A DNA stretch of 64,000 bases, taken from positions 1,104 through 65,103 of the forward strand of contig CAZZJI010000004.1 of NCBI GenBank assembly GCA_964654485.1, read 5' to 3'. Within the stretch, counting starts at the first letter, position 1. Each line of letters opens with the position of its first letter. Both the position numbers and the translations under genes were made by a program. The notes under the pieces are model-generated. The model saw only the letters and a list, made by a program, of their open reading frames with translations. It made no database searches and was not told the DNA's origin. Origin of the DNA: an uncultured Gammaproteobacteria bacterium (GTDB taxonomy: Bacteria > Pseudomonadota > Gammaproteobacteria > SG8-11). Below, one piece after another: positions 15,238 to 33,984 of this stretch.

Positions 15238-16104
15238 TTATTGAATGTGAGTAGATTGTTTCTCATTTTGTAACTGCTCATCATTTTGACGTTTTTCATT
15301 GTGAATGAAGGCTTTCATTACATACTTAACAATAGCCTGAATCTGCTCTTCATTTAATACCGATTTCCACGCAGACATCGTCGTACCGGGCAACCCATCC
15401 CGAATGACCTGGGTTAATTGTTCCACAGTGACTGATTTCATGCTGACTGAGGTTAAATCTCTCGGGTGGGCATCTAAAAAACTGCCAATCCAGTTTTTAC
15501 CGGTACCATCTGCGCTATGGCAAAATGCACAATTTTGTTGAAACAATCGTTCGCCTTGTTTTTCCTGCTCGCTTAACGACGCTATTACCGGTGCAATTTC
15601 ATGCACGGAATACGGCGTCGCGCCAGACTTTGCATCCACTTTCCTTGGCGCTTTATGAGAATAATTATTCCGCGGATAAGACAAGGGTCTGGATTCCCAA
15701 ACGGCACCCTCGGACTCGACACGCGCTCTATCATGACACGTCACACAGGCAGACATAAAAAGCCGTTTTCCTTTCTGTTGCAGTGGCGTTAATTCGTCCC
15801 AGGGCCTATCCAATGGCACCTCATTCAGGGCAAAGGGAAACGCGACTGCATATTGTTCATGGTTTTCCCAGCCGTTTTCTATTGTATGGTACGTCGTGTT
15901 GATTTTTTTATCCGTCATAAATTCCTGCCGGACAAAATCCACCACGGCTTCAATTTCCTTCGCATTCAAAATACTGCTGAATCCCTTCATCGCAGTATCA
16001 GATTTACCTTGGCTTACCGCAATAATCATAGCATCGCGCTTAAGCTGATCAGGTGACGTGAGCGTAAAATCACGCGGCGGCGGCGACACAAAGGAACTTG
16101 CCAA
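15238..16104 (-). CDS. Class I c-type cytochrome. The annotated TTG start lies after the first heme motif. The real product is probably diheme and may be fused to the upstream gene by a frameshift (see findings).
   Basis: CVTCH and CAFCH occur inside the annotated ORF. A further in-frame CYFCHG is encoded at 16129-16143, upstream of the TTG at 16102-16104, in an open frame (16104-16323) with no canonical start codon and no signal peptide. Confidence 0.65.
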   Translation of the reverse strand: MASSFVSPPPRDFTLTSPDQLKRDAMIIAVSQGKSDTAMKGFSSILNAKEIEAVVDFVRQEFMTDKKINTTYHTIENGWENHEQYAVAFPFALNEVPLDRPWDELTPLQQKGKRLFMSACVTCHDRARVESEGAVWESRPLSYPRNNYSHKAPRKVDAKSGATPYSVHEIAPVIASLSEQEKQGERLFQQNCAFCHSADGTGKNWIGSFLDAHPRDLTSVSMKSVTVEQLTQVIRDGLPGTTMSAWKSVLNEEQIQAIVKYVMKAFIHNEKRQNDEQLQNEKQSTHIQ

Positions 16105-16268
16105 TGTTTTGGCATTTCCAGAATAGCCATGGCAAAAATAACAGCGAAAATTATAAATTTTACGCCCTAATTCGTGATTTGAAAGCGATTGCGGCTGGCT
16201 TTTTGTTGGGCTTGTTTTTATTTTCTGAACAGTATTAGCAGCGTGAATAATGTGAGTCGTTGTTGTAG

Positions 16269-17723
16269 TTACTTCGTTTGATTGACCACTGGCTCTGTTA
16301 CTTTTTTTTTCTCCTCTTTGTTCTCATTGTTCTCATTGTTCTCAGCAATATTCTCAGCGTTCTTTTCTTCACTTTTTTCTTCAATTTTGGCAACGTTGAC
16401 GCCATCATTCACATTAGTAAGCTCTGAGGTTTTTTCTTTGTCAGCGTCTTTGGACGCATCTTTGGAATCACTCTCGGGTTGAATGAATGTTTTAAATACA
16501 AACTCAGTCACATCGGCAATTTGTTGCTCATTTAACACTTTATCCCAAGCCGGCATCACCGTCCCTATTTTGCCTTTTTGTATAGAATCAAACAAACGCG
16601 GTCGATTAAATATTTGGCGAGAAGCGTCACTGGTAAAATTTCTGGGGCGCGGTATAATAAAATGCGATCGGGGTCCTTTTCCATCACCCTTGGTGCCGTG
16701 GCAGACGTGACAATTAGTCAAAAAGAAACCCTCGCCTTTAGAAAAATCACCCCTCAGACCGTTGGGCATGACAGCATCCATATCCACAGCGGCATGCTGC
16801 TGGTCTGGCGTTACTTCTGGCGCAGCGGACTTGGGTGCCGCCGCCGTTGCAGCCGATTTGCTTAGTTCTTTTTCAGGCGCACTTTGTTGTTTTGCGGCAG
16901 CTTCAGCTACGTTATTAGCAACATTAGTACCACTATTATTCGCACCGCCACTATCAGCGATTTGCATGAACGCAGTGCGGATATAGGATACAACCGCTTC
17001 AATATCTGCAGCGGACAACCTGGACGAAAAGGACACCATGGCTGTGCCTGGGCGACCATTGGTAACTGAATCAATCATGCGTTGATGCGAAAGTTCAACT
17101 CTTGCATGTGGCGCAGTGAAGTCCCGCGGTGGCGGATTCAGACCACTTCGAGCCCAAACGGCAGTGGTACCTCTGTCACCATGGCAAGATGAGCAATTCT
17201 TTTCAAAAATTTCTCTACCTAATTCGTTTCCTTTGGTATCTACTGTTAACGCGTTGCCTGGCGGATTTTTCTCGCTACTGGCACTTTGCTCGCTGACGGC
17301 AGCCATTTCATTACTGGCTACTTCTGGCACTTGTGGAAATTTCATAAAATTGTCTCGTATATAATCTACGATCGATGCTATTTCATCGGTGCTCAACGTG
17401 CGTGTGTGTGCCACCATGGCGGTACCCGGCCGACCATTGACAACAGCATCAATCATGCGCTCGCGAGTTAACTCCTGCACTGCTTGTGCGTTGGTAAAAT
17501 CGCGTGGTGGCGGAATCATGCTTCTTACTACCCGTGTTTTGCCCTTGCCATCTTCACCATGGCAAATAGAACAGTATTTCTGAAAAAGCACCTCTGGCGA
17601 AGCCCCTTTTGCGGTTGCGGATGCAGTATTAGTCTCGCTTTGTGCTGCGAAACTGAAACTGGTGAAAACTAAACCTGAGATAAGCAGCAATAACAAGCAG
17701 ATTAATTTGAATTTGATCTTCAT
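16269..17723 (-). CDS. Triheme c-type cytochrome (three class I cytochrome c domains) with a signal peptide and an acidic low-complexity C-terminal tail
   Basis: 484 aa. The heme motifs are CSICHGEDGKG, CSSCHGDRGTT and CHVCHGTKGDG. Each is followed by a PPPRDFT...NGRPGTAM module. The tail is EEKSEEKNAENIAENNENNENKEEKKK. Confidence 0.8.
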   Translation of the reverse strand: MKIKFKLICLLLLLISGLVFTSFSFAAQSETNTASATAKGASPEVLFQKYCSICHGEDGKGKTRVVRSMIPPPRDFTNAQAVQELTRERMIDAVVNGRPGTAMVAHTRTLSTDEIASIVDYIRDNFMKFPQVPEVASNEMAAVSEQSASSEKNPPGNALTVDTKGNELGREIFEKNCSSCHGDRGTTAVWARSGLNPPPRDFTAPHARVELSHQRMIDSVTNGRPGTAMVSFSSRLSAADIEAVVSYIRTAFMQIADSGGANNSGTNVANNVAEAAAKQQSAPEKELSKSAATAAAPKSAAPEVTPDQQHAAVDMDAVMPNGLRGDFSKGEGFFLTNCHVCHGTKGDGKGPRSHFIIPRPRNFTSDASRQIFNRPRLFDSIQKGKIGTVMPAWDKVLNEQQIADVTEFVFKTFIQPESDSKDASKDADKEKTSELTNVNDGVNVAKIEEKSEEKNAENIAENNENNENKEEKKKVTEPVVNQTK

Positions 17724-18246: not shown

Positions 18247-19059
18247 ATGAAGGAATATAAGGTCAGTCAGCTGTTTTACACAGCAGTACCTGTGATCACC
18301 CTCCTCCTTATCGGGGGGATCTGGGCATCCACAACATTTGCTGAAACAATCATTGGTGATCCAGTATTAGGCGCCAACGACCCTATTCTCGGCTCCAAGC
18401 ATGATTTTACAGGCCTCAACGAACGTGCCGGGGTCGCTGCAATGGCAGGCGTCGCATTTTCTGATTATGGCTATTCCTGCGTCTATTGCCACATACCACC
18501 TGAAGAAACCGGCGCAAATCCCGCTGATTTTGGCGGTATAACGGACTGGAACCGATTCGAACCCGCGACTGAAAACTACAAACTCTATCGAAGCCAGACG
18601 CTTGATTCGATTACTGGCAAACCCAACCCAATCAGCATGTTATGCTTGTCATGTCACGATGGCACAATGGCGGTCGATATGGTGGTTTTCAAACCCGCCA
18701 CATTTGATAGCGCCGCTGATGAAGCAATGCATATGAAACTCAATAACACTGACAATATAGAAAACTGTGGCAAATGCCATAATGGTCAAATAGCCCACGA
18801 TATTTCAGCTAAAGTAATTGGCACCGATTTAAACAATGACCACCCGATCTCGATGCGTTATGCTGGCCTGGATACAGGGCGCGGCATCCTGGATGTAGAC
18901 TTCAGACCCCCTGATCACGCGGCTGGATTTGATAATGGTGTTAAACTTTATAATGGTAATGTAGAATGCGCCACATGCCACAATGTACACAACCCAACAA
19001 ACGAGTTGCTATTACGAACCGAAGCCGAAACACTGTGCTTTACTTGCCATCTGAAGTGA
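18247..19059 (+). CDS. Pentaheme c-type cytochrome of the doubled-CXXCH type, secreted
   Basis: 270 aa with a signal peptide. The heme motifs are CVYCH, CLSCH, CGKCH, CATCH and CFTCH. It is a paralog of the 20665-21723 gene and shares the HNF...CVYCH.P and TCLSCHDGT signatures. Confidence 0.85.
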   Translation: MKEYKVSQLFYTAVPVITLLLIGGIWASTTFAETIIGDPVLGANDPILGSKHDFTGLNERAGVAAMAGVAFSDYGYSCVYCHIPPEETGANPADFGGITDWNRFEPATENYKLYRSQTLDSITGKPNPISMLCLSCHDGTMAVDMVVFKPATFDSAADEAMHMKLNNTDNIENCGKCHNGQIAHDISAKVIGTDLNNDHPISMRYAGLDTGRGILDVDFRPPDHAAGFDNGVKLYNGNVECATCHNVHNPTNELLLRTEAETLCFTCHLK

Positions 19060-19112: not shown

Positions 19113-20225
19113 ATGATGAGACGCATTGCACCTGTATTGCCAGTATTTTTTGTAATCATTTTTGTCGCCACATCGCTCTCTGGATGCGGCGGCAGTCGAT
19201 CAGCACGTGAGTTCGTCCCCCCTGTCTATCCTGCTCCACCGGAAAAACCTCGATTTGTTTATGAACGTACTTTTCGTTCAAGCCTTGATGTAAAGGAAAT
19301 AACCGGAATGGATCGTTTTAAACAAGCGGTCACTGGCACAATGAGTTCAGGCCGGGGAATAGCGAAACCGTATGGTATTGCGGTATATCAGGGGCGCGTT
19401 TACGTCACCGACACCGTATCTCGCGCAATACTAATGTTTGACGTCCCGGGTAAGGATTTTAAGGCAATCGGCGTAGAGGGTCCGGGTACAATTACTAAAC
19501 CCATCGGCATTACCGTCTCTAACCAGGGTGAATTATATGTTGCTGACCATACCTCGAAAAGAATCATGGTTTATAACAAAGACGGTGATTTTTTGCGTGC
19601 CATTGGTGGCAGTGAGTATATGCGAAAACCTTCTGGCGTTGCGGTGAGTCCTGATGGCAGTCGACTCTATGTCATTGACACTGGCGGCGTGGATAACCGC
19701 GAAAACCACCGTATGACTATATGGGATGCGCAAACAGGTACCCTTATTAAATCCGTGGGTAGTCGGGGTACCGAGCCTGGGAATTTTAATTTACCACTAC
19801 AAGCCTCGGTCGCACCAGATGGTACCGTCTATGTCGTCGATGGCGGCAATTTTCGGGTACAGGCGTTTACCGCTGATGGTGATTACCTCAAAAGTATTGG
19901 CACAATAGGTCGGCGCGGGGGCCAGTTTTCCCGACCTAAAGGTATCGGAACGGATCCGCAGGGTAATATTTATGTTGTTGATACCGCATTTGGTAACACA
20001 CAAATTTTCAGCCCAGATGGCGAATTTCTCATGTGGGTAGGCAACCGCGGTAACAGCGGGCGACCTGGCGAATATATGTTACCTGCGGGTGTCACCGTTG
20101 ATGAAGACGGCCGAATTTACATGGTCGATCAATTCTTTAAAAAGGTCGATGTCTATCGACCTTACGAACTCAAGGAAAATGAAGGCTGGTTATCCAGTAT
20201 ACGAAAAGAGAAAAAAGAAAAATAA
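19113..20225 (+). CDS. NHL-repeat six-bladed beta-propeller lipoprotein
   Basis: 370 aa. The lipobox is SLSGCGG. Six blades end in YV.D-type strands (YVTDTVSRAILMFD, YVADHTSKRIMVYN, YVIDTGG, YVVDGGNFRVQAF, YVVDTAFGNTQIF, YMVDQFFKKVDVY). Confidence 0.85.
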   Translation: MMRRIAPVLPVFFVIIFVATSLSGCGGSRSAREFVPPVYPAPPEKPRFVYERTFRSSLDVKEITGMDRFKQAVTGTMSSGRGIAKPYGIAVYQGRVYVTDTVSRAILMFDVPGKDFKAIGVEGPGTITKPIGITVSNQGELYVADHTSKRIMVYNKDGDFLRAIGGSEYMRKPSGVAVSPDGSRLYVIDTGGVDNRENHRMTIWDAQTGTLIKSVGSRGTEPGNFNLPLQASVAPDGTVYVVDGGNFRVQAFTADGDYLKSIGTIGRRGGQFSRPKGIGTDPQGNIYVVDTAFGNTQIFSPDGEFLMWVGNRGNSGRPGEYMLPAGVTVDEDGRIYMVDQFFKKVDVYRPYELKENEGWLSSIRKEKKEK

Positions 20226-20664: not shown

Positions 20665-21723
20665 GTGAACAAAAGGCTAATATTATGCGTAGTTGCGCTT
20701 ATAACAGTTTTATCTTTGAATACGGCAATTGCCGATAACCATGGTGGTGAAGGGTGGGATCCGCAGTCGCGTGCCTCAGCCCAAGGTTCTATATTTAATA
20801 CTCGGCACAATTTCTCGATGCTTTATAGCTCGGCTGAGTTGGAATTGATGGGGGCGGTATCAATGAATCTTTACCCCGAGGTTTGTGTGTACTGTCACAC
20901 ACCTCACGGGGCTAACTCACAAATCGCTGCACCCATTTGGAACCGCACAATTAACACCAGTCAATACACAGTATTTGACAAGCCCAGGATGATAAACCAA
21001 CCCATTACACAACCGGGTCCAGGTTCATTAACCTGCCTTTCATGCCATGATGGCACGATTTCGACCGACTCCGTTATTAACATGCCTGGCTCGGGGCGCT
21101 ACAATAAAGCGGGTGAGACCGTTTGGGATCCTGCTTTTCTCGATCGTTGGAGTGCAGAATTTGGTGGCATTGGCCCTGCGTTTACCGGACCAACTTCTCA
21201 TAAACGAATGCGGCGCGGTGATACTAGTGCAGAAAGTTGTATGGCTTGCCACAATCCCAATGAAGTGGCAGCAGGTGCTGCCCCAGCGCCTGACTTTACT
21301 GTGTTCGGTATCGAAGAAGATCTACGAGATGATCACCCAATCGGTATCTTGTTTCCTTACCTATTCGGCGAATCCTTAATTCCAGGCACCGACTTTTGGG
21401 TGCCTACTGGCACTTTCACTACTCCGTCTGGAGAGGGAAAAATGGACTTCTTCGACACCGATGGAGACGGCAGGCCAGATACAAACGAAGTTCGCATGTA
21501 TGACACTGGCGACGGACCAGAAGTAGAATGTTCTTCATGTCATGATCCACACGGTATTCCTTCAGCAGGTAAAGGTTCGCGCTTTAACCCCAGTTTTCTT
21601 CGCGTGAACAATCTCAGCCCGGCTGGCAATAATGGCGGACCCGGTGTAGCCGGCATCGCCCCGTCAGTCACGGCTCAAGGGTTAACCGAGAGTGCGCTTT
21701 GTTTAACTTGCCATGATAAATAA
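20665..21723 (+). CDS. Pentaheme c-type cytochrome of the doubled-CXXCH type, secreted
   Basis: 352 aa with a signal peptide. The heme motifs are CVYCHTPHG, CLSCHDGT, CMACH, CSSCH and CLTCH. Confidence 0.85.
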   Translation: MNKRLILCVVALITVLSLNTAIADNHGGEGWDPQSRASAQGSIFNTRHNFSMLYSSAELELMGAVSMNLYPEVCVYCHTPHGANSQIAAPIWNRTINTSQYTVFDKPRMINQPITQPGPGSLTCLSCHDGTISTDSVINMPGSGRYNKAGETVWDPAFLDRWSAEFGGIGPAFTGPTSHKRMRRGDTSAESCMACHNPNEVAAGAAPAPDFTVFGIEEDLRDDHPIGILFPYLFGESLIPGTDFWVPTGTFTTPSGEGKMDFFDTDGDGRPDTNEVRMYDTGDGPEVECSSCHDPHGIPSAGKGSRFNPSFLRVNNLSPAGNNGGPGVAGIAPSVTAQGLTESALCLTCHDK

Positions 21724-22079: not shown

Positions 22080-23471
22080 TCAATCTGCGATTTGAATCGT
22101 GCCGACAAAAAGCACAGTGGGAAAATTACGTTGCAGTTCTTTACTGAAAAAATTCGACATAAATACGCCGGTGCTATACTGAATTTTCGTCCCAGTGTTT
22201 AATTTGGTCTTTGGACCCGCTATCCAGATCAAACCATTTTTGGAGTCCAGAACTTGTATATAGTTGTATGCCGTCGCTTCGATCACTTTTCTAACTGTTC
22301 CTTCATTGGGTAAAATTAATTTCTTGTTTTTACGCTCTTGCAGCTTGGTTTTATAGGTTTGTGCTTGTTGTTTGCTGCCCCAAAAACCAATATCCCCTTC
22401 TTTGTTAAACGTAGCGTACACAACACTGTTTAAATACCCTTCGCGATTGGTGCCACCCAACAGATAAATCCAGTCTTTATAAACCAATGCGCTAAATGTC
22501 GCTCTGGGCCGAATCATTGCGGTGGTGTCACGCCACTCGCCTAACCCACTGTCTGAACCCTTGCTTTTTTCGATACTGTCCAGATATTCAGCCCCTGTCA
22601 ATCCACCCAAAGCATACACATAATCACCATGCGCTGCGGTCGCCAGACCATAACGGCCGGTTTGCAACGAGTTAGTAGTTTGCCATTTCTGCATACCACT
22701 CGAAGCAGCAGCGCCAAGTGACCATTCAACATCGGTAATACCGACGCCCTTAGTTTGATCATGACCACCAATAACATAGGCCTTGTTTTGCCACTTTCTC
22801 ACACCCGTGACATAACGTGGTATGGTCAATTTCTCGTTATCCACTTTCCAGGCACTCAAACTACCGTCGGCATTAAATGTGCTGTATTCCACGCTATCCA
22901 GTAAAGCGCCCCCGAAACCACCAAGCGCATAGAGTGCATCATCGAGAATCATCACTTTGCTACAACGACGTGGTAACGCCATTTTTGATTCTACCACCCA
23001 GGGTCCTAAACTGCCGTCCGCAAGAATCTGCGCGCGTTCCACCGTACTCAAATAATTTTCGCCATTCGGGCCATTACCACCACCCACTACATAGATAAAG
23101 CCATTACGTACCGCCGCATCAATGAATACACGCTCTTCTAACAGATTCGGGCCTTGCTGCCATTCACCAACGGAACCATCTTTATTGATACGCGCATAAA
23201 TCGAATCTCTAAAAATTTCCCGGCCTGCAACACCCCCTAATAGATAAATAACGTCGTTATATACGACTGCCGCACCACCCGCACGCGGCGTCGGCATCGC
23301 CATCGTTTCTTGCCAACCCGGCACCCAAACAGAAGCTGAACTCGAATCAGCACTCATATCAGAGCTAATAGTAGAATCAGAACTCTGTTGTTTGTCGGCT
23401 TGCTTATCGCCGCAAGCAAACAATATCGAGAACATAGAAACAATGATTAATCTTGTTATTAGATTATGCAT
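22080..23471 (-). CDS. Kelch-repeat beta-propeller lipoprotein with an extra C-terminal domain
   Basis: 463 aa. The lipobox is LFACGDK. Kelch-type blades are present (VIYLLGG, FIYVVGGG, ALYALGG, KAYVIGG, YVYALGG, WIYLLGG). A roughly 90-aa C-terminal domain has unknown function. Confidence 0.75.
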   Translation of the reverse strand: MHNLITRLIIVSMFSILFACGDKQADKQQSSDSTISSDMSADSSSASVWVPGWQETMAMPTPRAGGAAVVYNDVIYLLGGVAGREIFRDSIYARINKDGSVGEWQQGPNLLEERVFIDAAVRNGFIYVVGGGNGPNGENYLSTVERAQILADGSLGPWVVESKMALPRRCSKVMILDDALYALGGFGGALLDSVEYSTFNADGSLSAWKVDNEKLTIPRYVTGVRKWQNKAYVIGGHDQTKGVGITDVEWSLGAAASSGMQKWQTTNSLQTGRYGLATAAHGDYVYALGGLTGAEYLDSIEKSKGSDSGLGEWRDTTAMIRPRATFSALVYKDWIYLLGGTNREGYLNSVVYATFNKEGDIGFWGSKQQAQTYKTKLQERKNKKLILPNEGTVRKVIEATAYNYIQVLDSKNGLIWIAGPKTKLNTGTKIQYSTGVFMSNFFSKELQRNFPTVLFVGTIQIAD

Positions 23472-23598
23472 AATTGAATTAAATATTAGAGAATAGAAGC
23501 ATTGAGTTTAATCGTGAAGGCACAAAGTACACAAAGAAATATTTTAAACCTTTGCGTACTTTGTGGTGAATAATATTACCTAAGTCCGACTGGCTGAC

Positions 23599-24891
23599 TT
23601 AGAGCTTATAATTAGATATCCGTGCTACACCACCAAAGCTACCCACCCACAGAGTGCCATCAGACGCCTTTGTTAGGGAAAAGACATTATCTGCAAACAA
23701 ACCATCAGTTTTCGTCATGATAGAAAAACCGTTACCATCAGCATTGGGTCTGGCTAAACCTTTATTTGTACCAATCCAAAGGCGGCGATCTTTCTCATCT
23801 AACTGAAGTGTAAAAATATGATTTCCCGGCAATCCGTCTTTTACAGTATAATTTTTCCAGTTGGTACCATCGAAGCGCGATAGTCCACCCCCCCAGGTAC
23901 CACACCAGACGATACCATCGTCATCAACAACTATTGAAACGATATAGTTCGGATTGAAACCAACCTCAATATCACTGCCCGCTTCCGCCGCCTGTGCCGC
24001 ATGATGTTGTGATACCTTTGAAGGATCATTTCTATAAGGAATATCGGCTTGCACTAATTCGTATTTTGCACCAAGACCATCTTTATGCTGCCAATTGCTC
24101 CACTTACCCTCTTTTAGTCTGGCAAGCCCGCCTTCGGTGGCAAACCACATTTCTCCGTTTTTACCAGCCTCTACGCCGTAAACCCAATCATTGGGTAATC
24201 CACCACCGGTATTTTCAGTTGTATAGTTCGACCACTTGGATGGATCATCTAAATCACCTCCCTTAACGAAGTTAGCACCAGACCAAGTCGCTATCCAGAC
24301 ATCGCCATTTCCATCTCTAAGCACATCGTAAACAAACTGATCTGCCAGTCCATCAGGAATATTATAATTTTTCCATTTTTTAGTCGTCAGATCAAAAGTA
24401 GACATGCCGCCACCATAGGTACCCACCATAATGCGATTGTCCAGCTTACTTACATGAAATACGCCGTTTGACAGCAAGCTTTTATTCTTAACATCATATA
24501 ATTCGTACTGATCAGATTTCAGATCATACTGAATAATACCGCCTGAAGTGCCTACCCACACTTTGTCACCATCCGCAAGCATACCTTTAACATTGCGGTT
24601 ACCGACACGAAAATGCGCGAAACCAACACCTTTCTCATTAGCCCGGGCCATCGTTGACTCGGTCCCCCCAGTAGGGTGATTGGGCGGCAAATTCTCTGTC
24701 GGGTTCTGTCCCGAGAGGCCAGGCAAGCTTGTACGACCCGGAGTAGATGGACTTGACCCACTCGCGCTGTTTGAACTACTTGTAACAACGGGCTGTTGCC
24801 CGCCTTGTTTCACGCCTAAAGAAAATGCGCCCGCGACAACTACACCAACGACGATAATTAAAATTGCCAATCCTTTAAAATCAAGCTTCAC
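23599..24891 (-). CDS. Beta-propeller protein with two-component-regulator-propeller (Reg_prop)-type repeats, a TM anchor and a Ser/Pro-rich linker
   Basis: 430 aa. It has recurrent W.GT.GG and KDGL repeats (WVGTSGGIIQY, WIATWSGANF, WFATEGGLARL, WCGTWGGGLSRF, WIGTNKGLAR, WVGSFGGVARI). Confidence 0.7.
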   Translation of the reverse strand: MKLDFKGLAILIIVVGVVVAGAFSLGVKQGGQQPVVTSSSNSASGSSPSTPGRTSLPGLSGQNPTENLPPNHPTGGTESTMARANEKGVGFAHFRVGNRNVKGMLADGDKVWVGTSGGIIQYDLKSDQYELYDVKNKSLLSNGVFHVSKLDNRIMVGTYGGGMSTFDLTTKKWKNYNIPDGLADQFVYDVLRDGNGDVWIATWSGANFVKGGDLDDPSKWSNYTTENTGGGLPNDWVYGVEAGKNGEMWFATEGGLARLKEGKWSNWQHKDGLGAKYELVQADIPYRNDPSKVSQHHAAQAAEAGSDIEVGFNPNYIVSIVVDDDGIVWCGTWGGGLSRFDGTNWKNYTVKDGLPGNHIFTLQLDEKDRRLWIGTNKGLARPNADGNGFSIMTKTDGLFADNVFSLTKASDGTLWVGSFGGVARISNYKL

Positions 24892-24955
24892 TTCAAAACC
24901 TCCGGAGTTAATCAGTGCTAAAAAATCACACCTTACCTTAAATTGTTAACCTTTT

Positions 24956-26122
24956 TTATTTCCCCAATAAAACAACACCTGCTCGTCCACCAACCCAGAC
25001 ACCACCGTCGGACGATAATGCAATAGTATAAATATTGTTATCAAGCAGCCCGTCTTTCATTGTAAACGTATACCAGTTTTTCCCATCATAGCGAGACAGC
25101 CCATTGTTAGTGCCAAACCAGATACTGCCGTCTTTTTTATCTATCGCTAGCGCAAAAACAATATCGCCGGCCAAACCTTGCTCTTGCGTATAATTAGTCC
25201 ACTTTTTGCCGTCAAAGTGACTTGCACCACCGCCCCAGGTCCCCGCCCAAACAGTATCATCTGCGGCGACTTCGAGCGTAAATATATAATTTGGATTATA
25301 GGTCGTTCGCCCTTCTAACATGACACTTAAATCGTGACGCGATCGTGTGCCCAGGCCTGTGTTTTCACTTACTGACAACCCCCCTTTGTTTGCTGCACCT
25401 AGTCCATCCTCATGTGTCCAAGTCAGCCAATTGCTACCATCAAACATGTTCACACCGCCTTCGGTGCCAATCCAAACCTGATCTTTAGAATCCACTGCCA
25501 AACCATAAACCCATTCATTAACCAACTCAGTTAAATAGGTATTAAATTCCTCTGTTTTTACATCATAGGTATTTAACCCGTACCAGGTGCCAATCCAGAT
25601 CGTGCCGTTTGCCTGTTCAGCAAAGGCATACACCCAATAATCGGCCAAACCATGCATCGGGAAATAAGTTTTCCAATTACCATCTTTTAAATATGAGACA
25701 CCACCGCCATTTGTGCCGAACCACTTGCCACCGTGACTGTCCGCCATAATGCCAAAGATATATTCGTTCGCAAAACCAGTATCACGCGTGTAAGTATTGA
25801 GCATATTTCGTGATGCGATATCAACTTGTAACGCACCGACCGTTGTGCCAATCCAAATTTCGTTCTTCGATTCATCGATAGCCAAGGACCGTACAAAGAC
25901 AGTCTCACCCACATCAAATGTTTCCAACACTTTATAACCACTGGCGTTCGCCGCTTTTTCAGGGACTTTTTCAGGGAAGAGCGAAGGAGAAAGCGCAGAA
26001 GACGGTGGCGTCGCAGTGGGTTGTGGTTTCGACGATGATGTTTCGTCTTGTTCCCGATCATCGCCACAGGCATTCAAACCAACCATCGCGCTCAGTATTA
26101 AAAATATTAATGCATTTTTCAT
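24956..26122 (-). CDS. Reg_prop-type beta-propeller lipoprotein; paralog of the 23599-24891 gene
   Basis: 388 aa. The lipobox is LNACGDD. The repeats are WIGTTVGALQV, WFGTNGGGVSYL, WIGTWYGLNTY, WIGTEGGVNMF, WAGTWGGGASHF, WFGTNNGLSRY and WVGGRAGV. Confidence 0.7.
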   Translation of the reverse strand: MKNALIFLILSAMVGLNACGDDREQDETSSSKPQPTATPPSSALSPSLFPEKVPEKAANASGYKVLETFDVGETVFVRSLAIDESKNEIWIGTTVGALQVDIASRNMLNTYTRDTGFANEYIFGIMADSHGGKWFGTNGGGVSYLKDGNWKTYFPMHGLADYWVYAFAEQANGTIWIGTWYGLNTYDVKTEEFNTYLTELVNEWVYGLAVDSKDQVWIGTEGGVNMFDGSNWLTWTHEDGLGAANKGGLSVSENTGLGTRSRHDLSVMLEGRTTYNPNYIFTLEVAADDTVWAGTWGGGASHFDGKKWTNYTQEQGLAGDIVFALAIDKKDGSIWFGTNNGLSRYDGKNWYTFTMKDGLLDNNIYTIALSSDGGVWVGGRAGVVLLGK

Positions 26123-26564: not shown

Positions 26565-27875
26565 CTATGGTCTAACTGAGTTTATCAACAATGGTATTTC
26601 GGTAGTGCCAACAGAAATGACCGGGCTTTTGCCCTCAAAGTCTCCACTTTGTGGTGTCGCATTGCCGCTCTTAGAAATCCTGGCACCGACTATAACATCT
26701 TTAAATTTCGACAGTTTAAATGCTGGATTCATTGATGACGAATCATCCAATACAAAAGTAATCGGCAAATCTTTTACTTGTTTCTTCAATATAGCTAGCG
26801 GCATACGCGGACCAGTCGCTGCTCTGGCGAAGATGAAAACTGTATCGGTCGGCGCGGCGCTGCTCGCAAAAACAGGTGCAATTGTCACTACACCACTGAC
26901 GCTGCTGGCTCCCGCCGCCGCGCCCGGTGCCGTAGGAAGTGCCGTAGAAAGTACAGCAGACGATTTTTCAGAGGGCGTCGCGGCAGAACCACCAGATGCA
27001 GTTGGTGATGGAACGGACATACCGCGCAACACCATCAATTCTTTTACTTCCCCAATATTACGCTGAATCTGTTGAGCGCTATCTGACTCGGGCGGAAAAA
27101 GAGATACTAATTTTTCCCAGTAGGCAAGCGCCGCTGGAAAATCTTCTGCTTGATATGCGCCTGTTCCCGCTAACCAGAGTGATTTTTGGTGAAACGGTTG
27201 TAATGTGAGTGCTTTCTTGACCAGCTCATAGGGTCGGCCTGCCATCTGCCGATTATTCGCAACTGCAAGTGTGTCAGCAAAATCAGCCAGTAAATCCGGG
27301 TTGTTTTCACCAGATAATTTTATCGCTTCACCATATGCTTTACTGGCTTCAAGATGACGTTTTTGAAAATAATAAGTACGCCCTAACATAATCCATCCTT
27401 CTACATCGCTTGGATTTGATGCCAAACGCTGCTGCAGCCCTAGGATCACATCGTCGATAGACCCTTCGTGACCTTCAGAACTTGCTACTACTGAGGGGTC
27501 ATTAGGTGAAATCGCGGCCAGCCCCCCGCCTATCTCGTTGTAAATAAGTACTGCTGCCAATGGAATACCTAAACCAATTACGATGGCTGTGGTACTGCCT
27601 TTGGAAACTTGTTGTGAATGCGGGTCATCCGGTTCTTTTACATCTTCCAATAAACTTCGATCAAGTTCTTTGCGAGCACTATCGAACTGTTCATCGGTTA
27701 GTACACCATTTTTTAAATCTTCATCCAACTCGGCTATTTTATCTTTATGAATAGCAATATTAATCTTGTCGCGCTTTACATCTTCCTGCCTTTTACCCGC
27801 GTACAATAAGGGGGGCAATAAAAATAATAATCCTGCAACTAACAATAATACAGCGACAATCCAAAATACTGTCAT
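26565..27875 (-). CDS. ccmI: Cytochrome c-type biogenesis protein CcmI (TM anchor, TPR repeats, long Ala/Ser-rich C-terminal extension)
   Basis: 436 aa. It is the last gene of the ccm operon. The N-terminal TM helix, KRDKINIAIHKDKIAELDEDL and the TPR-like region are typical of CcmI/CycH. Confidence 0.75.
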   Translation of the reverse strand: MTVFWIVAVLLLVAGLLFLLPPLLYAGKRQEDVKRDKINIAIHKDKIAELDEDLKNGVLTDEQFDSARKELDRSLLEDVKEPDDPHSQQVSKGSTTAIVIGLGIPLAAVLIYNEIGGGLAAISPNDPSVVASSEGHEGSIDDVILGLQQRLASNPSDVEGWIMLGRTYYFQKRHLEASKAYGEAIKLSGENNPDLLADFADTLAVANNRQMAGRPYELVKKALTLQPFHQKSLWLAGTGAYQAEDFPAALAYWEKLVSLFPPESDSAQQIQRNIGEVKELMVLRGMSVPSPTASGGSAATPSEKSSAVLSTALPTAPGAAAGASSVSGVVTIAPVFASSAAPTDTVFIFARAATGPRMPLAILKKQVKDLPITFVLDDSSSMNPAFKLSKFKDVIVGARISKSGNATPQSGDFEGKSPVISVGTTEIPLLINSVRP

Positions 27876-28414
27876 GACTTATCCTTTTCTCCAGCACCTT
27901 TTTCTTCAGCGCGCAATAATTCGTTCACTTGCTTGCTTTCGTCATCTGATAGCGTAGGTGAGCTAACAACTTGTTTACTGCGCCGTTTTAAATTTATAAA
28001 AAGTAGTGTGCCACCAATCACAAGAAACAGTGCAGGTCCAAACCAAAGTAACATGGTGGTTGCTTTAATAGGCGGTCGATAACGCACAAAATCACCATAT
28101 CGTTCCACCATATAATCAATAACTTGAACTTCTGTTTTACCAGACGAGAGCATCTCCCGTACCTGATTCTTCAGGTCAACGGCTAACGCAGCGTCGGAAT
28201 CGGCTATCGTCTGATTTTGACAAACCAAACAACGTAATTCAGCGGAAACGGTGTTTACCTTTTCTTCCAATACCGGATCCTTAGCCATTGGCGTGGCTTC
28301 CTTGGCTAATACCGGATTGCTTACCATTATTTCAAGCAAAATAGTCCCAATCAAGACCCCAAGCAAAACTTGTGCGGTTAGGAAAAATTCAACATTTTTG
28401 ATTAGATGTTTCAT
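27872..28414 (-). CDS. ccmH: Cytochrome c-type biogenesis protein CcmH
   Basis: 180 aa. It has the LRCLVCQNQ redox motif and a C-terminal TM helix. The start and stop overlap those of ccmG and ccmI. Confidence 0.85.
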   Translation of the reverse strand: MKHLIKNVEFFLTAQVLLGVLIGTILLEIMVSNPVLAKEATPMAKDPVLEEKVNTVSAELRCLVCQNQTIADSDAALAVDLKNQVREMLSSGKTEVQVIDYMVERYGDFVRYRPPIKATTMLLWFGPALFLVIGGTLLFINLKRRSKQVVSSPTLSDDESKQVNELLRAEEKGAGEKDKS

Positions 28415-28947
28415 CCTTTTTCCAACTCCTTAAGCAATGGCATCACATCTTCTACTAATGATTGTCTAGTCACAGGTCCAATCACTTTGTGCCGAATAAT
28501 GCCTTGTTTATCTATCACAAACGTTTCAGGGACGCCGTATACACCATAATCAATGCCGACTCTACCATCATAATCCACAACACTTAATTTATAAGGATTA
28601 CCATGTTGCTGCAACCATTGCTTCGCGTCTTTGGGCACATCCTTGTAATTCAAGCCATACAAAGGCACATCTCCGCGACGCGCAAATTCCATCAACAATG
28701 GGTGTTCAGCAAGGCACGCTACACACCATGAAGCCCAAACATTTAATAACCATACCTTGCCACGCATTTCCTCTGGTGAAAATGACAACTGAAAATCATG
28801 TAGCTGAGAAAGCTTAAACGCCGGCGCCGCTTTATTAATAAACGGAGACGGCACTTCTCTGGGCTTAAGACTTAAACCCTTCCACAAAAATCCAACCATC
28901 ACAGCAAAAATAATGAGTGGCAGTAAAAACTTAATATAACGTGCCAT
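28411..28947 (-). CDS. ccmG: Thiol:disulfide interchange protein CcmG/DsbE
   Basis: 178 aa. It has a thioredoxin fold with the WCVAC active site and an N-terminal TM anchor. Confidence 0.85.
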   Translation of the reverse strand: MARYIKFLLPLIIFAVMVGFLWKGLSLKPREVPSPFINKAAPAFKLSQLHDFQLSFSPEEMRGKVWLLNVWASWCVACLAEHPLLMEFARRGDVPLYGLNYKDVPKDAKQWLQQHGNPYKLSVVDYDGRVGIDYGVYGVPETFVIDKQGIIRHKVIGPVTRQSLVEDVMPLLKELEKG

Positions 28948-29031
28948 TAAAATACTCCGTTCATCTACCTACCCGTATTAATGCAAACAATGAACCAGGC
29001 AAATAGGGTAAAAATATCGCAAATTAGTGTA

Positions 29032-31056
29032 TTATTCAGTCGCGCCCAAACCCTTTGGATCAGCTTTAGGGCCAGCCAGCACTTCACTTTCTTTCTTCAC
29101 TTCCGGTTGTCCAACCTTACGCCGTGCCAAACGATAGCGACGATCTGAAATTGCAAGAAAACCACCTAAAGTCATAAAAACGGCTCCACCCCAAATCCAG
29201 CCTACAAAGGGCTTATAATATACACGCACACTCCAGGCACCGCCCGCAAGTGGTTCACCCAGGGAGACATAAAGATCCCTGAATAAACCGCTATCGATAC
29301 CCGCTTCGGTCATCGGCATGCGTTGTACGGTATACAATCGTTTTTCAGGCTTGAGTATAGTTTCGAACTCACCGTTTTTTGTTACATAAATTAGTCCCTG
29401 GCTGGCGGTATAATTAGGGCCTTGTATATCCTGCGCGCCATCAAAACGAAAAACATACGGACCGATACCAATGGTGTCACCTATTTCCATTCTAACATCC
29501 TGTTCGGATTCATAATTAACAACACAGGTGATACCAATAATCGTCACCGCAACGCCAAAGTGTGCGAGATTGTGGCCATAATAGCTTCTTGGCAACTTTT
29601 TCAATTTGTGCAACACACTGCCCTTATAGGCGGACACCGATACGCGTTGGTAAATATTGGCAATCACACTAAAAATAATCCAATAAGCCATTAGCAAGCC
29701 CAGGCTGACCAAAGCGGACCATTCACCCGCCAAAAATGGAACAACCAAAGCACTTATCACTGAAGCAATAAAAGGAATGCGCATTTGCTTAAGCAAATCT
29801 GCTGTGTTGGTCTGCTTCCAGCGAGCAACGGGACCTATTCCCATCATAGCAACCAGCACGACGACCAAAGGCACAAATACCGCATTAAAATACGGAGGAC
29901 CCACCGAAATTTTCCCCATACCCAGAGCATCGAGCAATAATGGATAGGTTGTCCCTAATAAAACCGACCCGCAGGCAACCACCAACACAACGTTAGCAAT
30001 AAGCAACATGGTTTCCCTGGAAACTAACTTGAACTCACCGCCTAACCCAACTTTAGGTGCGCGCCAGGCAAACAAAGCGAGTGAAGTGCCAATCGTCACT
30101 AACAAAAAGATAAGAATAAATAAACCACGTTCAGGATCAGTTGCAAACGCGTGCACTGACGTCAACACACCCGACCTCACCAAAAACGTACCTAACAAAC
30201 TAAGTGAAAACGTAAAAATAGCTAACAACACCGTCCAGTTTTTAAAGGTACCGCGTTTTTCTGTTACCGCCAGTGAGTGAATTAACGCAGTCCCCATTAT
30301 CCATGGCATAAATGACGCATTTTCTACCGGATCCCAGAACCACCAACCACCCCAACCTAATTCGTAATAAGCCCACCAGCTTCCTAATGCGATGCCGAGG
30401 GTCAAAAATGCCCAGGCAATGGTTGTCCAGGGACGCGACCAACGAGCCCACGCAGCATCAAAACGTCCACTTAATAACGCCGCGATCGCAAATGCAAACG
30501 CAACTGAAAAACCAACATACCCCATATACAACATCGGCGGATGAATTATTAATCCGAAATCCTGGAGCAAGGGGTTTAAATCTCGCCCGTCTACTGCAGC
30601 CGGTAATAATCTGTCAAAAGGATTGGAAGTAAAAATCATAAAGGACAAAAAGCCTACTGAAATCAGGCTCATTACACCCAGCACTCTGGCGACCATATCC
30701 AACGGTAGATTTTTGCTGAAAATGGATACCGCGTACGCCCAGCCCGCTAACATCAGCATCCACAATAACAATGAGCCTTCATGACCACCCCAGATAGCTG
30801 CGATTTTATACTGTATCGGCATGGCAGAATTTGAATTGGTCGCGACATAAGTCACAGAAAAATCATCATTTAAAAACGCATAAGCCAGGCAGGCGAATGC
30901 CACCGCAACAAACATAAATTGAGCCTGGGCACCAGGGCGAGACATCGCCATCCAGGAATAATCACCTCTGGCAGCACCCGCAATGGATAACACGCCTTGT
31001 ACCAACGCAATGCATAGCGCTATAATTAATGCAAAATGACCGATCTCTGGTATCAT
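29032..31056 (-). CDS. ccmF: Cytochrome c heme lyase subunit CcmF
   Basis: 674 aa polytopic membrane protein. It has the WGGWWFWDPVEN tryptophan-rich motif. Confidence 0.9.
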   Translation of the reverse strand: MIPEIGHFALIIALCIALVQGVLSIAGAARGDYSWMAMSRPGAQAQFMFVAVAFACLAYAFLNDDFSVTYVATNSNSAMPIQYKIAAIWGGHEGSLLLWMLMLAGWAYAVSIFSKNLPLDMVARVLGVMSLISVGFLSFMIFTSNPFDRLLPAAVDGRDLNPLLQDFGLIIHPPMLYMGYVGFSVAFAFAIAALLSGRFDAAWARWSRPWTTIAWAFLTLGIALGSWWAYYELGWGGWWFWDPVENASFMPWIMGTALIHSLAVTEKRGTFKNWTVLLAIFTFSLSLLGTFLVRSGVLTSVHAFATDPERGLFILIFLLVTIGTSLALFAWRAPKVGLGGEFKLVSRETMLLIANVVLVVACGSVLLGTTYPLLLDALGMGKISVGPPYFNAVFVPLVVVLVAMMGIGPVARWKQTNTADLLKQMRIPFIASVISALVVPFLAGEWSALVSLGLLMAYWIIFSVIANIYQRVSVSAYKGSVLHKLKKLPRSYYGHNLAHFGVAVTIIGITCVVNYESEQDVRMEIGDTIGIGPYVFRFDGAQDIQGPNYTASQGLIYVTKNGEFETILKPEKRLYTVQRMPMTEAGIDSGLFRDLYVSLGEPLAGGAWSVRVYYKPFVGWIWGGAVFMTLGGFLAISDRRYRLARRKVGQPEVKKESEVLAGPKADPKGLGATE

Positions 31057-31157
31057 AATCCCTCTCTTGAATCCCTATTCTTTCTGCAGTTGCTAACTTA
31101 TGTTTTTGATTTGAATATGTTTCCTAACGACCTTGCTAACATAAGGTTTGGCTAAAA

Positions 31158-31619
31158 CTATTCTGCCAGGTTTGTAGTATTCATTTTTGCTTTTGCTTTT
31201 TCCGCTTTGTCCAGCGCATCCTGAACCTCGGGTGGCATATAAGTCTCATCGTGCTTGGCGAGCACTTCTTTGGCATAAAAGCTGCCACTATCGTCAAGTT
31301 TGCCTTGTGCAACAACCCCCTGACCTTCCTGAAATAAATCCGGTAAAATACCTTTATAAGTAACGTCAATGGTCTGTAATTTGTCAGTCACTTTAAAATG
31401 CACGGTCAAACCATCATCTTCTCGTTGCAAACTACCTTCTTCCACCATGCCGCCTACTCGAATGGTTTTACCACGCGGCGCTTCATTAGACTTAACTTCT
31501 GTAGGACTGTAAAAAAATGAAACATTGCTATTCAATGCATTCAACACCAATCCAGCAGCAACAGCCAATCCGGATACACCAATCACTACAAACATTAAAC
31601 GCTTATTTCTTGCCTTCAT
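31158..31619 (-). CDS. ccmE: Heme chaperone CcmE
   Basis: 153 aa. It has an N-terminal TM anchor, an OB fold, and a C-terminal LAKHDETYMPPEV carrying the heme-binding His. Confidence 0.9.
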   Translation of the reverse strand: MKARNKRLMFVVIGVSGLAVAAGLVLNALNSNVSFFYSPTEVKSNEAPRGKTIRVGGMVEEGSLQREDDGLTVHFKVTDKLQTIDVTYKGILPDLFQEGQGVVAQGKLDDSGSFYAKEVLAKHDETYMPPEVQDALDKAEKAKAKMNTTNLAE

Positions 31620-31644
31620 ATTCGATAATCCTGTTTCTCTAATA

Positions 31645-31833
31645 TTACTCTGTAGTCTGGTTGCGTTTGTTAGCTCGAATCAAGCGAAACAAACGTTGCA
31701 CTAATGTGCGTCGGCGTCGACTCAGCAAAATCAATTCACCAACCATAAAGGCGGCCGTAACGCCATATGACCACCAAACGAAACTGGCGTAGCCACCCAT
31801 GTGTATAAACTCGGACCAACTGGACCAGTTCAT
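31645..31833 (-). CDS. ccmD: Heme exporter protein CcmD
   Basis: 62 aa single-TM protein located between ccmC and ccmE. Confidence 0.75.
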   Translation of the reverse strand: MNWSSWSEFIHMGGYASFVWWSYGVTAAFMVGELILLSRRRRTLVQRLFRLIRANKRNQTTE

Positions 31834-32627
31834 GCACTGCCCCCTTCTCTCTGGACAGATTTCTGTTGCTCTGTCTTGTCTTGTACAGGACCATCCAGTA
31901 AATCAGCGACCCAAGATGCATTTTTTTCGCGCTCAAGAATTTCACAACGAACGCGCATCAGCGCCACCACGATTGCATACGCCCAGAACGCAAACACCAT
32001 AATCATCATCGTCCATAACATCGTCGGGTCGATTTTCGATTCTTGACCCGGCGCAACCGAGAAAGGTTGATGCAAAGTATTCCACCATTTCACCGAAAAA
32101 TAGATGATAGGCACGTTAACCGCACCCACAATGGCTAACAATGCGCTGGCTTTTGATGCACGTCGTGGATCATCAATCGCCGAGCGTAATGCAATAAACC
32201 CCATATAAAGAAAAAGCATCACCAGGTAGGTAGTTAGTCTTGCATCCCATACCCAATAAGTACCCCATGTAGGTTGGCCCCACAACGCACCCGTCCATAA
32301 TCCAACAAAAGTAAACATCGCACCAGTGGGTGCCAGTGCACCTGCCATCATCTCTGCGAGCTTTACATTCCAGATAAGTCCAACTGCGGCCCAGCCCGCC
32401 ATCACCATATAAATCAACATCGACATCCACACCGCAGGCACGTGGATATAGATAATGCGATAACTGTCACCCATTCGGTAATCGGGAGGCGTGACCAATA
32501 ATCCTAAATACAAACCAATCGCCGTGAGAACAACAGCAATACCCATACACCAAGGTATAATTTTACCGGCAGCCGGATAAAATGTTTTTGGTGATGAGAA
32601 ATACAACCAGAATCGTGATGTGGCCAT
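31830..32627 (-). CDS. ccmC: Heme exporter protein CcmC
   Basis: 265 aa. It has the WGTYWVWDARL WWD motif. Confidence 0.9.
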   Translation of the reverse strand: MATSRFWLYFSSPKTFYPAAGKIIPWCMGIAVVLTAIGLYLGLLVTPPDYRMGDSYRIIYIHVPAVWMSMLIYMVMAGWAAVGLIWNVKLAEMMAGALAPTGAMFTFVGLWTGALWGQPTWGTYWVWDARLTTYLVMLFLYMGFIALRSAIDDPRRASKASALLAIVGAVNVPIIYFSVKWWNTLHQPFSVAPGQESKIDPTMLWTMMIMVFAFWAYAIVVALMRVRCEILEREKNASWVADLLDGPVQDKTEQQKSVQREGGSA

Positions 32628-32659
32628 AAACTAATACTTCTCTATTATTCCGCGCTGAT

Positions 32660-33367
32660 CTATTCAACGCTAATTCTTAAAGCAACACTGGTTGCTAACG
32701 GTGCAAACACAATAGATGCCACTAAAAACGCACCCAGTAACGATAAATGCCCATCGATACTGATGCCCGCGCTATACGCCTCCACCGCACCGGCACCAAA
32801 TATCAGCACTGGTATAAACAACGGCAACACTAACAGCGACAACAATATACCACCTCCGCGCACACCCAATGTAAGTGCCGCGCCGATGGACCCAATTAAA
32901 CTTAAAACAGGTGTACCTAACAACAAGGTAATCACCAATATCTGTATCGTATCTGCACTTAACCCCAACTGCATACCTAACAGGGGTGAGAGCAATGCGA
33001 GTGGCACACCGGTCAACAGCCAATGTGCAAATAATTTTGCTAGTACCAAAACAGACAATGGGTATGGCGCGATCACCATCTGTTCCAATGTGCCATCTTC
33101 AAAATCACTGGCGAACAACGTGCTTAATGACAACATTGAGGCCAATAGCGCGGCAACCCAGATAACACCTGGCGCCATCGTGCGCAACAGTTCCATTTCC
33201 GGACCTACACCCAATGGAAACAGTGTGACGGCAATTATAAAGAAAAACAGCGTCGTAAACACATCCGTACGCCGTCGCATCGCCAGAGTCAGGTCACGTA
33301 CCACCATAAAGCGGAAGGCAGCAATTAACCCCATTTCACCTGTGGATTCTGCCACTGCGTCGCTCAC
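32660..33367 (-). CDS. ccmB: Heme exporter permease CcmB
   Basis: 235 aa polytopic membrane protein, downstream of ccmA with overlapping start and stop. Confidence 0.85.
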   Translation of the reverse strand: MSDAVAESTGEMGLIAAFRFMVVRDLTLAMRRRTDVFTTLFFFIIAVTLFPLGVGPEMELLRTMAPGVIWVAALLASMLSLSTLFASDFEDGTLEQMVIAPYPLSVLVLAKLFAHWLLTGVPLALLSPLLGMQLGLSADTIQILVITLLLGTPVLSLIGSIGAALTLGVRGGGILLSLLVLPLFIPVLIFGAGAVEAYSAGISIDGHLSLLGAFLVASIVFAPLATSVALRISVE

Positions 33368-33984
33368 GAATCCAGATTAATTTGTCGAGCTTGTTTGCCC
33401 GTTGTCAGAGCAACATCCTGGTGTGTAGTTAATATCACCATCCCACCATTTTCGAGATGTGTTCTTATTAATCCTTGCAATAATTCCACAGCCGCAACAT
33501 CCAAGGCGCTAAAAGGCTCGTCCAGAATCCATAATTTTGTCTCGCTGACCAGTAACCTGGCCAAAGCAACACGGCGCTTTTGTCCTTGCGATAAAAATCG
33601 GGTGGGTAAATCCTCTCGACCCATTAGCCCCATTTTTTCCAGGGACTCAAGTGCTCGCGCTTCAGATAATTCGATGCCCGCGAGCTTACTGGAAATCCTC
33701 AAATTTTCAATGCCGGTTAGCTCATCCTTGATCGCATTTAGATGGCCAAAATAGCTAAGTTCCTGATAATACTCCTCACGCAACTCACTTATATTTTCGT
33801 TTTCCCAAAAAACTTCACCCTCAGTGGGCATAAATAAACCACATAAAATCCTCAATAAACTGGTTTTTCCACTGCCATTGGATCCGCGCAAATAAACAAG
33901 TTCCCCGGCGCTAACAGAAAAGCCTAAATTTCTAAATAAAACATGGTCTCCTCGAGTACATTCGAGATTCCGGGCCTCTAACAT
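33364..33984 (-). CDS. ccmA: Heme exporter ATP-binding protein CcmA
   Basis: 206 aa. The Walker A motif is GSNGSGKTSLL, the ABC signature is LSQGQKRRVALARLL, and the Walker B motif is ILDEP. Confidence 0.9.
   Translation of the reverse strand: MLEARNLECTRGDHVLFRNLGFSVSAGELVYLRGSNGSGKTSLLRILCGLFMPTEGEVFWENENISELREEYYQELSYFGHLNAIKDELTGIENLRISSKLAGIELSEARALESLEKMGLMGREDLPTRFLSQGQKRRVALARLLVSETKLWILDEPFSALDVAAVELLQGLIRTHLENGGMVILTTHQDVALTTGKQARQINLDS

Follow-up and report, generated by a model that had tools for sequence, protein, structure and literature searches.

The window analysed here is a stretch of 64,000 nucleotides (nt) from an uncultured Gammaproteobacteria bacterium of the SG8-11 lineage (GenBank assembly GCA_964654485.1, contig CAZZJI010000004.1), in which two long overlapping open reading frames (ORFs) on the minus strand encode modules of c-type cytochromes and meet at a run of nine A residues (A9). 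An earlier note on this DNA had proposed that the two frames are joined by a −1 frameshift at this run, and we followed up that proposal computationally. The upstream, 0-frame ORF (16269..17723, minus strand; ATG at 17723, TAA at 16271-16269) encodes a triheme class I c-type cytochrome of 484 amino acids (aa), the predicted short product, with CXXCH motifs at 17573-17559, 17195-17181 and 16712-16698. By inspection, it begins with a Sec-type signal peptide (17643..17723, minus strand), MKIKFKLICLLLLLISGLVFTSFSFAA followed by QSE, that has a K-rich n-region, about 15 hydrophobic residues and a cleavage-like site SFA-A. Judging from the sequence, this signal peptide is the sole export signal available to either module. 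The C-terminal part of the protein is a long acidic tail of low complexity (...NENKEEKKKVTEPVVNQTK, then the stop; C-terminus ...NKEEKKKVTEPVVNQTK).

The A9 run lies at 16302..16310 on the minus strand (T9 on the plus strand), is read as AAA AAA AAA in the 0 frame and is followed by a G at 16301; it is the proposed slippage or shift site. The triheme gene ends right after it, as the earlier note had described, at a TAA 10 codons past the run (16269..16271, minus strand) that sets the 3′ limit of the shift window, and the 5′ limit is set by a TGA (16324..16326, minus strand), the last −1-frame stop upstream of the run. The −1 frame is open from 16323 through the run, also in line with that description, and continues into the gene annotated at 15238-16104. 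In total it spans 361 codons (15238..16323, minus strand, closing at the TAA at 15240-15238), which comprise a 55-codon non-conserved linker and a class I cytochrome module; its translation begins EQRGEKKSNRASGQSNEVTTTTTHIIHAANTVQKIKTSPTKSQPQSLSNHELGRKIYNFRCYFCHG... and reads HELGRKIYNFRCYFCHG... past the linker. The note had counted this module as diheme and expected a pentaheme fusion, but the frame contains three CXXCH motifs (CYFCH, CVTCH and CAFCH at 16143-16129, 15747-15733 and 15531-15517, in that order), so a fused product of 828 aa would have six hemes. Because a TAA in the +1 frame stands directly after the run (16298..16300, minus strand), transcripts with A8 or A11 would also yield the short triheme product, and only two functional product classes are thus expected.

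The downstream frame has no means of its own to start or to be exported. No ATG, GTG or TTG precedes CYFCH, the earliest being a TTG at 16104 that already lies within the heme domain, and the −1-frame stretch ahead of the first heme domain contains neither a hydrophobic segment nor a signal peptide; on both points the earlier reading was right. The annotated, mechanically made gene call of 288 aa (15238..16104, minus strand) begins at this internal TTG past the first heme motif and is a gene-calling artefact. The same shortened downstream calls occur in relatives (P0001-P0003, P0006 and P0008). The nearest database proteins to the downstream frame, of about 275-283 aa, start at an identical internal (M/L)ASSFVSPPPRDF and thus represent the same truncated gene call, and the contigs that encode them have an identical layout and an identical A9 followed by G.

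Ligation of heme to CXXCH by the Ccm system happens in the periplasm, on the Sec-exported apoprotein. The window contains a complete System I cytochrome c maturation operon, ccmA-I (26565-33984, minus strand), that consists of ccmA (33364-33984), ccmB (32660-33367), ccmC (31830-32627), ccmE (31158-31619), ccmF (29032-31056), a ccmG-like redoxin gene (28411-28947), ccmH (27872-28414) and ccmI/cycH (26565-27875). Because the downstream module lacks a start and a signal peptide, and because ligation is periplasmic, it could become a holoprotein only as an extension of the upstream protein. Comparative evidence strongly supports the earlier proposal that synthesis and export of the downstream cytochrome are possible only as a −1 extension of the upstream protein. 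Independent translation through re-initiation or a non-canonical start would have ATT and ATA codons in the linker at its disposal (16251, 16248 and 16221), but no signal peptide follows them, an unexported CXXCH cannot obtain heme from Ccm, and ATG, GTG and TTG are wholly absent before the first heme motif in most relatives; we give this explanation next to no credence.

The predicted long product, an 828-aa hexaheme cytochrome (15238..17723, minus strand), corresponds to join(17723..16302, 16302..15238) or to an mRNA with A10, from which we derived the conceptual translation. Its predicted junction is ...NKEEKKKSNRASGQ..., with the junction peptide ...EEKKKSNRASGQSNE... (...EEKKK-SNRASGQ...). 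The conceptual fusion contains five stretches that match PF13442/PF00034 above the Pfam cut-off (212 bits for PF13442 and 172 bits for PF00034) and six CXXCH motifs. In an NCBIfam search no specific family reached the cut-off and only generic cytochrome-domain matches were obtained, and a PDB sequence search returned only generic CcoP-like matches. An AlphaFold2 model of the downstream module (15-sequence alignment; mean pLDDT 60.5, pTM 0.41) was too poor for a fold search. A scan for terminators and promoters between the two ORFs yielded nothing above chance, Rfam had no match at the junction (E up to 1) or in the whole window, and a tRNA scan of the window found none.

To place the junction in a comparative frame, we collected 158 distinct junctions from GTDB species-representative genomes, metagenome contigs and contigs encoding database matches (sources GTDB, JGI, ENA, Logan and NCBI) and applied one classifier to all of them; 155 could be classified, and the other 3 lay on contigs too short upstream. 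A metagenome scan meant for close relatives gave only matches of ≤65% identity, which were usable as independent junctions. The frameshift arrangement was found at 60 loci. The run is A9 in 57 and A10 in 3 of them (L008, L041 and L167), it is phased AAA_AAA_AAA in 58, and the next base is G in 57; the downstream module lies in the −1 frame in 59, and the 0-frame stop falls exactly 2 codons past the run in 42. At 94 loci without the run, the downstream gene starts at an ATG of its own and encodes a separate signal or lipoprotein peptide; 62 of these loci show a strict lipobox. The remaining locus (L101) is in frame and carries an A10 allele (L101:~373-382; ...AGKKKSPVV...RHERGRAIYNFRCYFCHG). 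All classified loci fit these three states, that is, an A-run overlap, a separate signal-bearing gene or an in-frame fusion, and none is unexplained. One of the A10 loci, L041 (L041:3808-3817), belongs to a species-level metagenome-assembled genome (MAG) and has its run in the other codon phase, so that the two frames could be fused there only by dropping one A or by shifting +1. Such a run, if genuine, is compatible with polymerase slippage and not with −1 ribosomal slippage; the locus is a single contig that may be an assembly error, and we did not rely on it.

Two further junctions, fetched separately, are single ORFs that encode hexaheme proteins. L170 carries A10 followed by T (...AKKKIANK...) about 48 nt 5′ of the first downstream heme motif and with A9 instead would read KKK-TAG, and L171, at 69% GC, is a true fusion without an A-run in the same neighbourhood. 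The single long ORF for which the earlier note had suggested a search among orthologs thus exists, in L101 and L170 as A10 alleles and in L171 without a run. The note had also held that orthologs with a separate downstream gene and its own signal peptide would speak against the fusion. The 94 such loci are mostly betaproteobacterial (Gallionella, Noviherbaspirillum, Rhodoferax, Aromatoleum/Azoarcus and Thiobacillus), but they lack the A-run and are an alternative evolutionary state, not a refutation; the criterion was badly posed. The frameshift class consists of Gammaproteobacteria MAGs, including those labelled Chromatiales and Ectothiorhodospiraceae, and in a neighbour-joining tree of the downstream module with 155 tips the frameshift and separate-gene states switch only twice.

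The downstream homologs of relatives share 57-89% aa identity, and the loci with A9 span 40-64% GC. Against four relatives, the downstream module has a dN/dS of 0.06-0.11 at a dS of 0.45 to >2 (saturated), and all heme motifs are intact; by this measure, the module is functional and under strong purifying selection. A decaying pseudogene, in which a one-base deletion killed an ancestral fusion and left its downstream part unexpressed, might be suspected from the in-frame fused version found elsewhere (L171). However, the same "lesion" is shared by about 60 species, the linker frame is open in every case, none of the three downstream heme motifs is lost and dN/dS stays at 0.06-0.11 with dS saturated; this reading is effectively refuted.

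The run itself is invariant at the nucleotide level beyond what the amino acids need, given a dS of 0.45 to >2 and the frequent use of AAG in the same genes: elsewhere in these ORFs, Lys is encoded by 974 AAA and 738 AAG codons, and AAA accounts for just 11-19% of Lys codons in GC-rich loci. Free variation is seen in the codon 5′ of the run and in the linker, both in its sequence and in its length (13-58 codons). In four relatives the initial A's of the run form part of the last −1-frame stop, and several loci leave no more room for the shift than the run and 6 further nt. Because the −1 stop can overlap the run and the 0-frame stop usually lies 2 codons past it, all permissible shift windows have nothing but the run in common.

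An A9 run by itself is not unusual, since the window contains 4 runs of this type compared with 6.1 ± 3.6 in shuffled sequences. What exceeds chance is the position of the run and its cross-species conservation. Among 18 long homopolymers, that at 16302-16310 is the only one sitting in the overlap of two long ORFs, and none of the other 17 interrupts an ORF. The other three 9-nt A/T runs (43393-43401, 45912-45920 and 47062-47070) lie inside intact full-length Pfam domains, in genes for an ABC-transporter permease and two adjacent FGE-sulfatase-type paralogs. On the argument applied here to the A9 run, these three should be prone to polymerase slippage as well and would then give truncated products.

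Long homopolymers are classic error sites on some sequencing platforms, and a sequencing or assembly error would imply a true A10 and a single ORF, which was one of three options in the earlier note. We looked up further assemblies of the same species with the downstream ORF as key, so that run length was not pre-selected. Three were found (from ENA, Logan SRR6439372 and NCBI VAPM01; L172-L174); they are 99.85-100% identical to the window and all have A9, which makes 4 of 4 same-species assemblies. The independent JGI, ENA, NCBI and Logan assemblies all show A9, many have MEGAHIT or SPAdes names, and one (L172) retains an Illumina TruSeq adapter; in the window itself, as described above, the other 9-mers lie in intact domains and the other long homopolymers break no ORF. 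Together with A9 in 57 of the 60 diverged relatives, the same-species assemblies exclude a sequencing indel, and we regard the chance of such an error as negligible.

Two features of L172, a public ENA metagenome contig, are recorded here in their own right. At L172:40-132, a T12 run at the start and the TruSeq index adapter (CAAGCAGAAGACGGCATACGAGAT...GTGACTGGAGTTCAGACGTGTGCTCTTCCGATCT) represent adapter contamination in a deposited assembly. In addition, a 9-nt tandem repeat, GAGAACAAT, coding for (E-N-N)n, lies immediately 5′ of the A9 run (16317-16343 of the window, minus strand), with 2 copies and a degenerate third in the window and with 5 copies and a degenerate one in L172 (L172:133-200). 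The copy number in the linker thus differs in frame between the two while A9 is constant; L172 has a coverage of 1.6x, and the difference may be an assembly artefact.

A second option of the note was a phase-variable contingency locus, in which replication slippage toggles between A9 (fusion OFF) and A10 (fusion ON) and the hexaheme protein comes from A10 cells only. Homopolymers are prone to replication slippage (PMC3711429), and in-frame A10 alleles are seen in L101 and L170. Nevertheless, only these two in-frame A10 alleles stand against A9 in 57 of the 60 diverged loci and in all four same-species assemblies, a dN/dS of 0.06-0.11 could hardly persist in a module that only rare A10 cells express, and the products are periplasmic electron carriers of free-living environmental bacteria rather than surface antigens. 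Because run length is nearly invariant and purifying selection is strong, we consider phase variation improbable as the main mechanism, which leaves programmed recoding as the one of the three options that stands.

From the anatomy and conservation of the locus, the purifying selection on its downstream module and the existence of in-frame and separate-gene equivalents, we infer that a shift occurs, and at what level and efficiency; programmed recoding at the A9 run very probably yields both a triheme and a hexaheme protein. Our favoured reading, to which we assign a probability of roughly 0.6, is that of a conserved programmed recoding site that works most likely through RNA polymerase slippage adding one A. 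One transcription unit would then give rise to two periplasmic c-type cytochromes with a common signal peptide and N-terminal triheme module. The A9 mRNA, decoded normally, would be terminated at the TAA at 16271-16269 and would give the 484-aa triheme protein. In a share of mRNAs, the realignment of RNA polymerase on the nine-base homopolymer would add one A, and normal translation of the A10 mRNA would lead in the −1 frame through the flexible linker into the second triheme module, resulting in the 828-aa hexaheme protein. By analogy with tested A9 sites, tens of percent of the mRNAs could be slipped ones, and the ribosome may play a part through −1 slippage on the in-phase A_AAA_AAA.

Polymerase slippage with the addition of one A and −1 ribosomal slippage give an identical KKK-S junction. 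In the ribosomal version, two tRNA-Lys would slip back on A_AAA_AAA while the A9 mRNA stays unedited, and the same two products would result. A_AAA_AAA is a recognised shift motif (PMC3711429; PMC4066793), it is in phase with the 0 frame in 58 of the 60 frameshift loci, and 59 of the 60 need a shift by −1. On the other hand, a purely ribosomal mechanism would place no constraint on the run's first two A's, yet they are invariant while the preceding codon varies widely, and the A10 locus L041 needs the opposite shift. The earlier note had named A_AAA_AAG, the classic heptamer of dnaX, as the slippery sequence; it is present but out of phase, the in-phase heptamer being A_AAA_AAA. The likeness to dnaX drawn there also did not hold, because no dnaX-type stimulators are conserved, and the conserved 9-nt run points more to RNA polymerase slippage. 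For a 3′ stem-loop, we folded the 60 nt downstream of the run in 38 loci and obtained a mean z of −0.43, the controls giving −0.22 (Wilcoxon p = 0.6); in the window, this 60-nt stretch has a dG of −3.9 and a z of +0.70. A Shine-Dalgarno (SD)-like motif (GGAG, GAGG or AGGA) is present within 20 nt upstream in just 5 of 39 loci. The window carries GAGGAG 2 nt upstream of the run, which is not conserved in relatives.

Four considerations favour polymerase slippage. All nine A's are kept though the ribosome needs seven, and nine matches the 9-10 bp RNA-DNA hybrid, runs of 9 A/T being sites of high-efficiency slippage by RNA polymerase (PMC5009743). No downstream structure or SD-like element is conserved, and the A_AAA_AAA ribosomal cases proven so far rely on a stem-loop (PMC4066793), for which neither our folding nor the Rfam scan gave support. 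Finally, in Escherichia coli reporters 40% of the product was frameshifted at the A9 site of a cellular gene, and longer runs were more efficient (PMC3711429). We therefore consider the event probably transcriptional rather than ribosomal and an exclusively ribosomal mechanism possible but a good deal less likely.

Several points weigh against this preference or limit its force. The in-phase A_AAA_AAA heptamer allows −1 ribosomal slippage, and the near-invariant codon phase and 3′ G, which polymerase slippage does not need, could reflect descent or a translational component. Structure scans of the kind used here can miss pseudoknots or long-range stimulators. Length variants exist at the DNA level, both in frame (A10 in L101 and L170) and among the frameshift-type loci (A10 in L008, L041 and L167), which indicates that some replication slippage occurs. 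Furthermore, the naive probability of finding AAA-AAA-AAA for every KKK, about 10^-52, overstates the independence of the loci, which are phylogenetically related.

The proposed site can be compared with four known systems. In Thermus thermophilus dnaX, a nine-base homopolymer within the coding region likewise leads to mixed mRNAs and to two products at a fixed ratio with no RNA stimulator (PMC5009743; PMC3711429); there, however, the unslipped product is long and slippage truncates it, whereas here the unslipped product would be short and slippage would extend it, and protein family and compartment differ. The Shigella flexneri type III secretion genes mxiE and spa13 are similar in that homopolymer slippage joins an upstream ORF to an overlapping frame, the C-terminally extended product making up ~25-30% of molecules (PMC5009743). 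These are plasmid virulence genes of one genus, in contrast to the chromosomal respiratory-type cytochrome pair of about 60 species-level lineages described here. The Mg-chelatase recoding cluster (Antonov et al. 2013) shares a non-mobile cellular gene, a conserved poly-A and a −1 transition, with reporter efficiencies of 63% for A11, 40% for A9 and 10% for A7 (PMC3711429), but it concerns another protein family and its run length is variable, whereas the run of the cytochrome locus is nearly always 9. The E. coli dnaX site (A_AAA_AAG with an SD-like element and a stem-loop) also has a lysine-codon slippery site and two products from one gene; in the cytochrome locus A_AAA_AAG is out of phase, the SD-like element and stem-loop are unconserved, and the frameshift product would be the longer one.

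Few conserved recoding sites are known to us in non-mobile, non-viral bacterial genes. We found no recoding in c-type or multiheme cytochromes in the review of Atkins et al. 2016, in Antonov et al. 2013 (main text and supplements) or by full-text searches.

The cytochrome pair is part of a larger cluster. Divergent from it on the plus strand lie genes for a pentaheme paired-CXXCH cytochrome (18247-19059; 270 aa), an NHL beta-propeller protein with a lipoprotein-like N-terminus (19113-20225; 370 aa) and a multiheme cytochrome (20665-21723; 352 aa). The pentaheme and NHL genes are conserved beside the cytochrome pair in L001, L002, L006, L008, L170 and L171. Between the ccm operon and the cytochrome cluster, the minus strand encodes a Kelch-repeat protein (22080-23471) and two two-component regulator propeller proteins (23599-24891 and 24956-26122). 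By the description in the paper and on gene content alone, the cytochrome pair and its neighbourhood match the "secondary c-type cytochrome cluster" of Ca. Tenderia electrophaga and other Tenderiales, a cluster described there as having a type-I ccm operon, genes for an NHL protein and for two periplasmic sensor-propellers, and, as cytochromes, one pentaheme protein, two triheme proteins and one protein with a "partial CcoP domain" (bioRxiv 10.1101/2022.05.06.490989). The word "frameshift" occurs 0 times in that paper. The candidate Tenderia counterparts of the two triheme genes are ALP54654.1 and ALP54655.1. The Kelch and propeller genes (22080-26122) correspond to the periplasmic sensor-domain genes of the Tenderiales cluster.

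A role in electron uptake by Tenderiales-like bacteria has been proposed for cytochrome clusters of this kind. Tentatively, and as a suggestion that we consider rather doubtful, the A9 run might be a tunable stoichiometry device in an extracellular-electron-uptake cluster, setting the ratio of free triheme protein to a tethered hexaheme "wire" and replacing the lipid anchor that the second module has in Betaproteobacteria. Transcription speed or NTP supply might in addition influence this ratio. If the run were such a device, no earlier case of conserved recoding would be known from a respiratory c-type cytochrome, and, dnaX and insertion sequences aside, few chromosomal slippage sites would be as widely conserved. 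Because separate-gene, in-frame and slippage versions exist as natural controls, the locus offers a clean system for asking why a cell fixes the ratio of two products by slippage.

Public annotations, as in Kaarinaea lacus and many MAGs, split the locus into a full and a truncated, signal-less "c-type cytochrome", so that heme counts and cluster models miss the hexaheme protein. In the Kaarinaea lacus annotation, P0141 ends ...EKKKAP and P0030 is without a signal peptide. Elsewhere in the window, a 932-aa multiheme cytochrome (51467-54265, minus strand) with paired-CXXCH, cytochrome c7 and MtrC/MtrF-like matches is a candidate extracellular or periplasmic electron-transfer protein.

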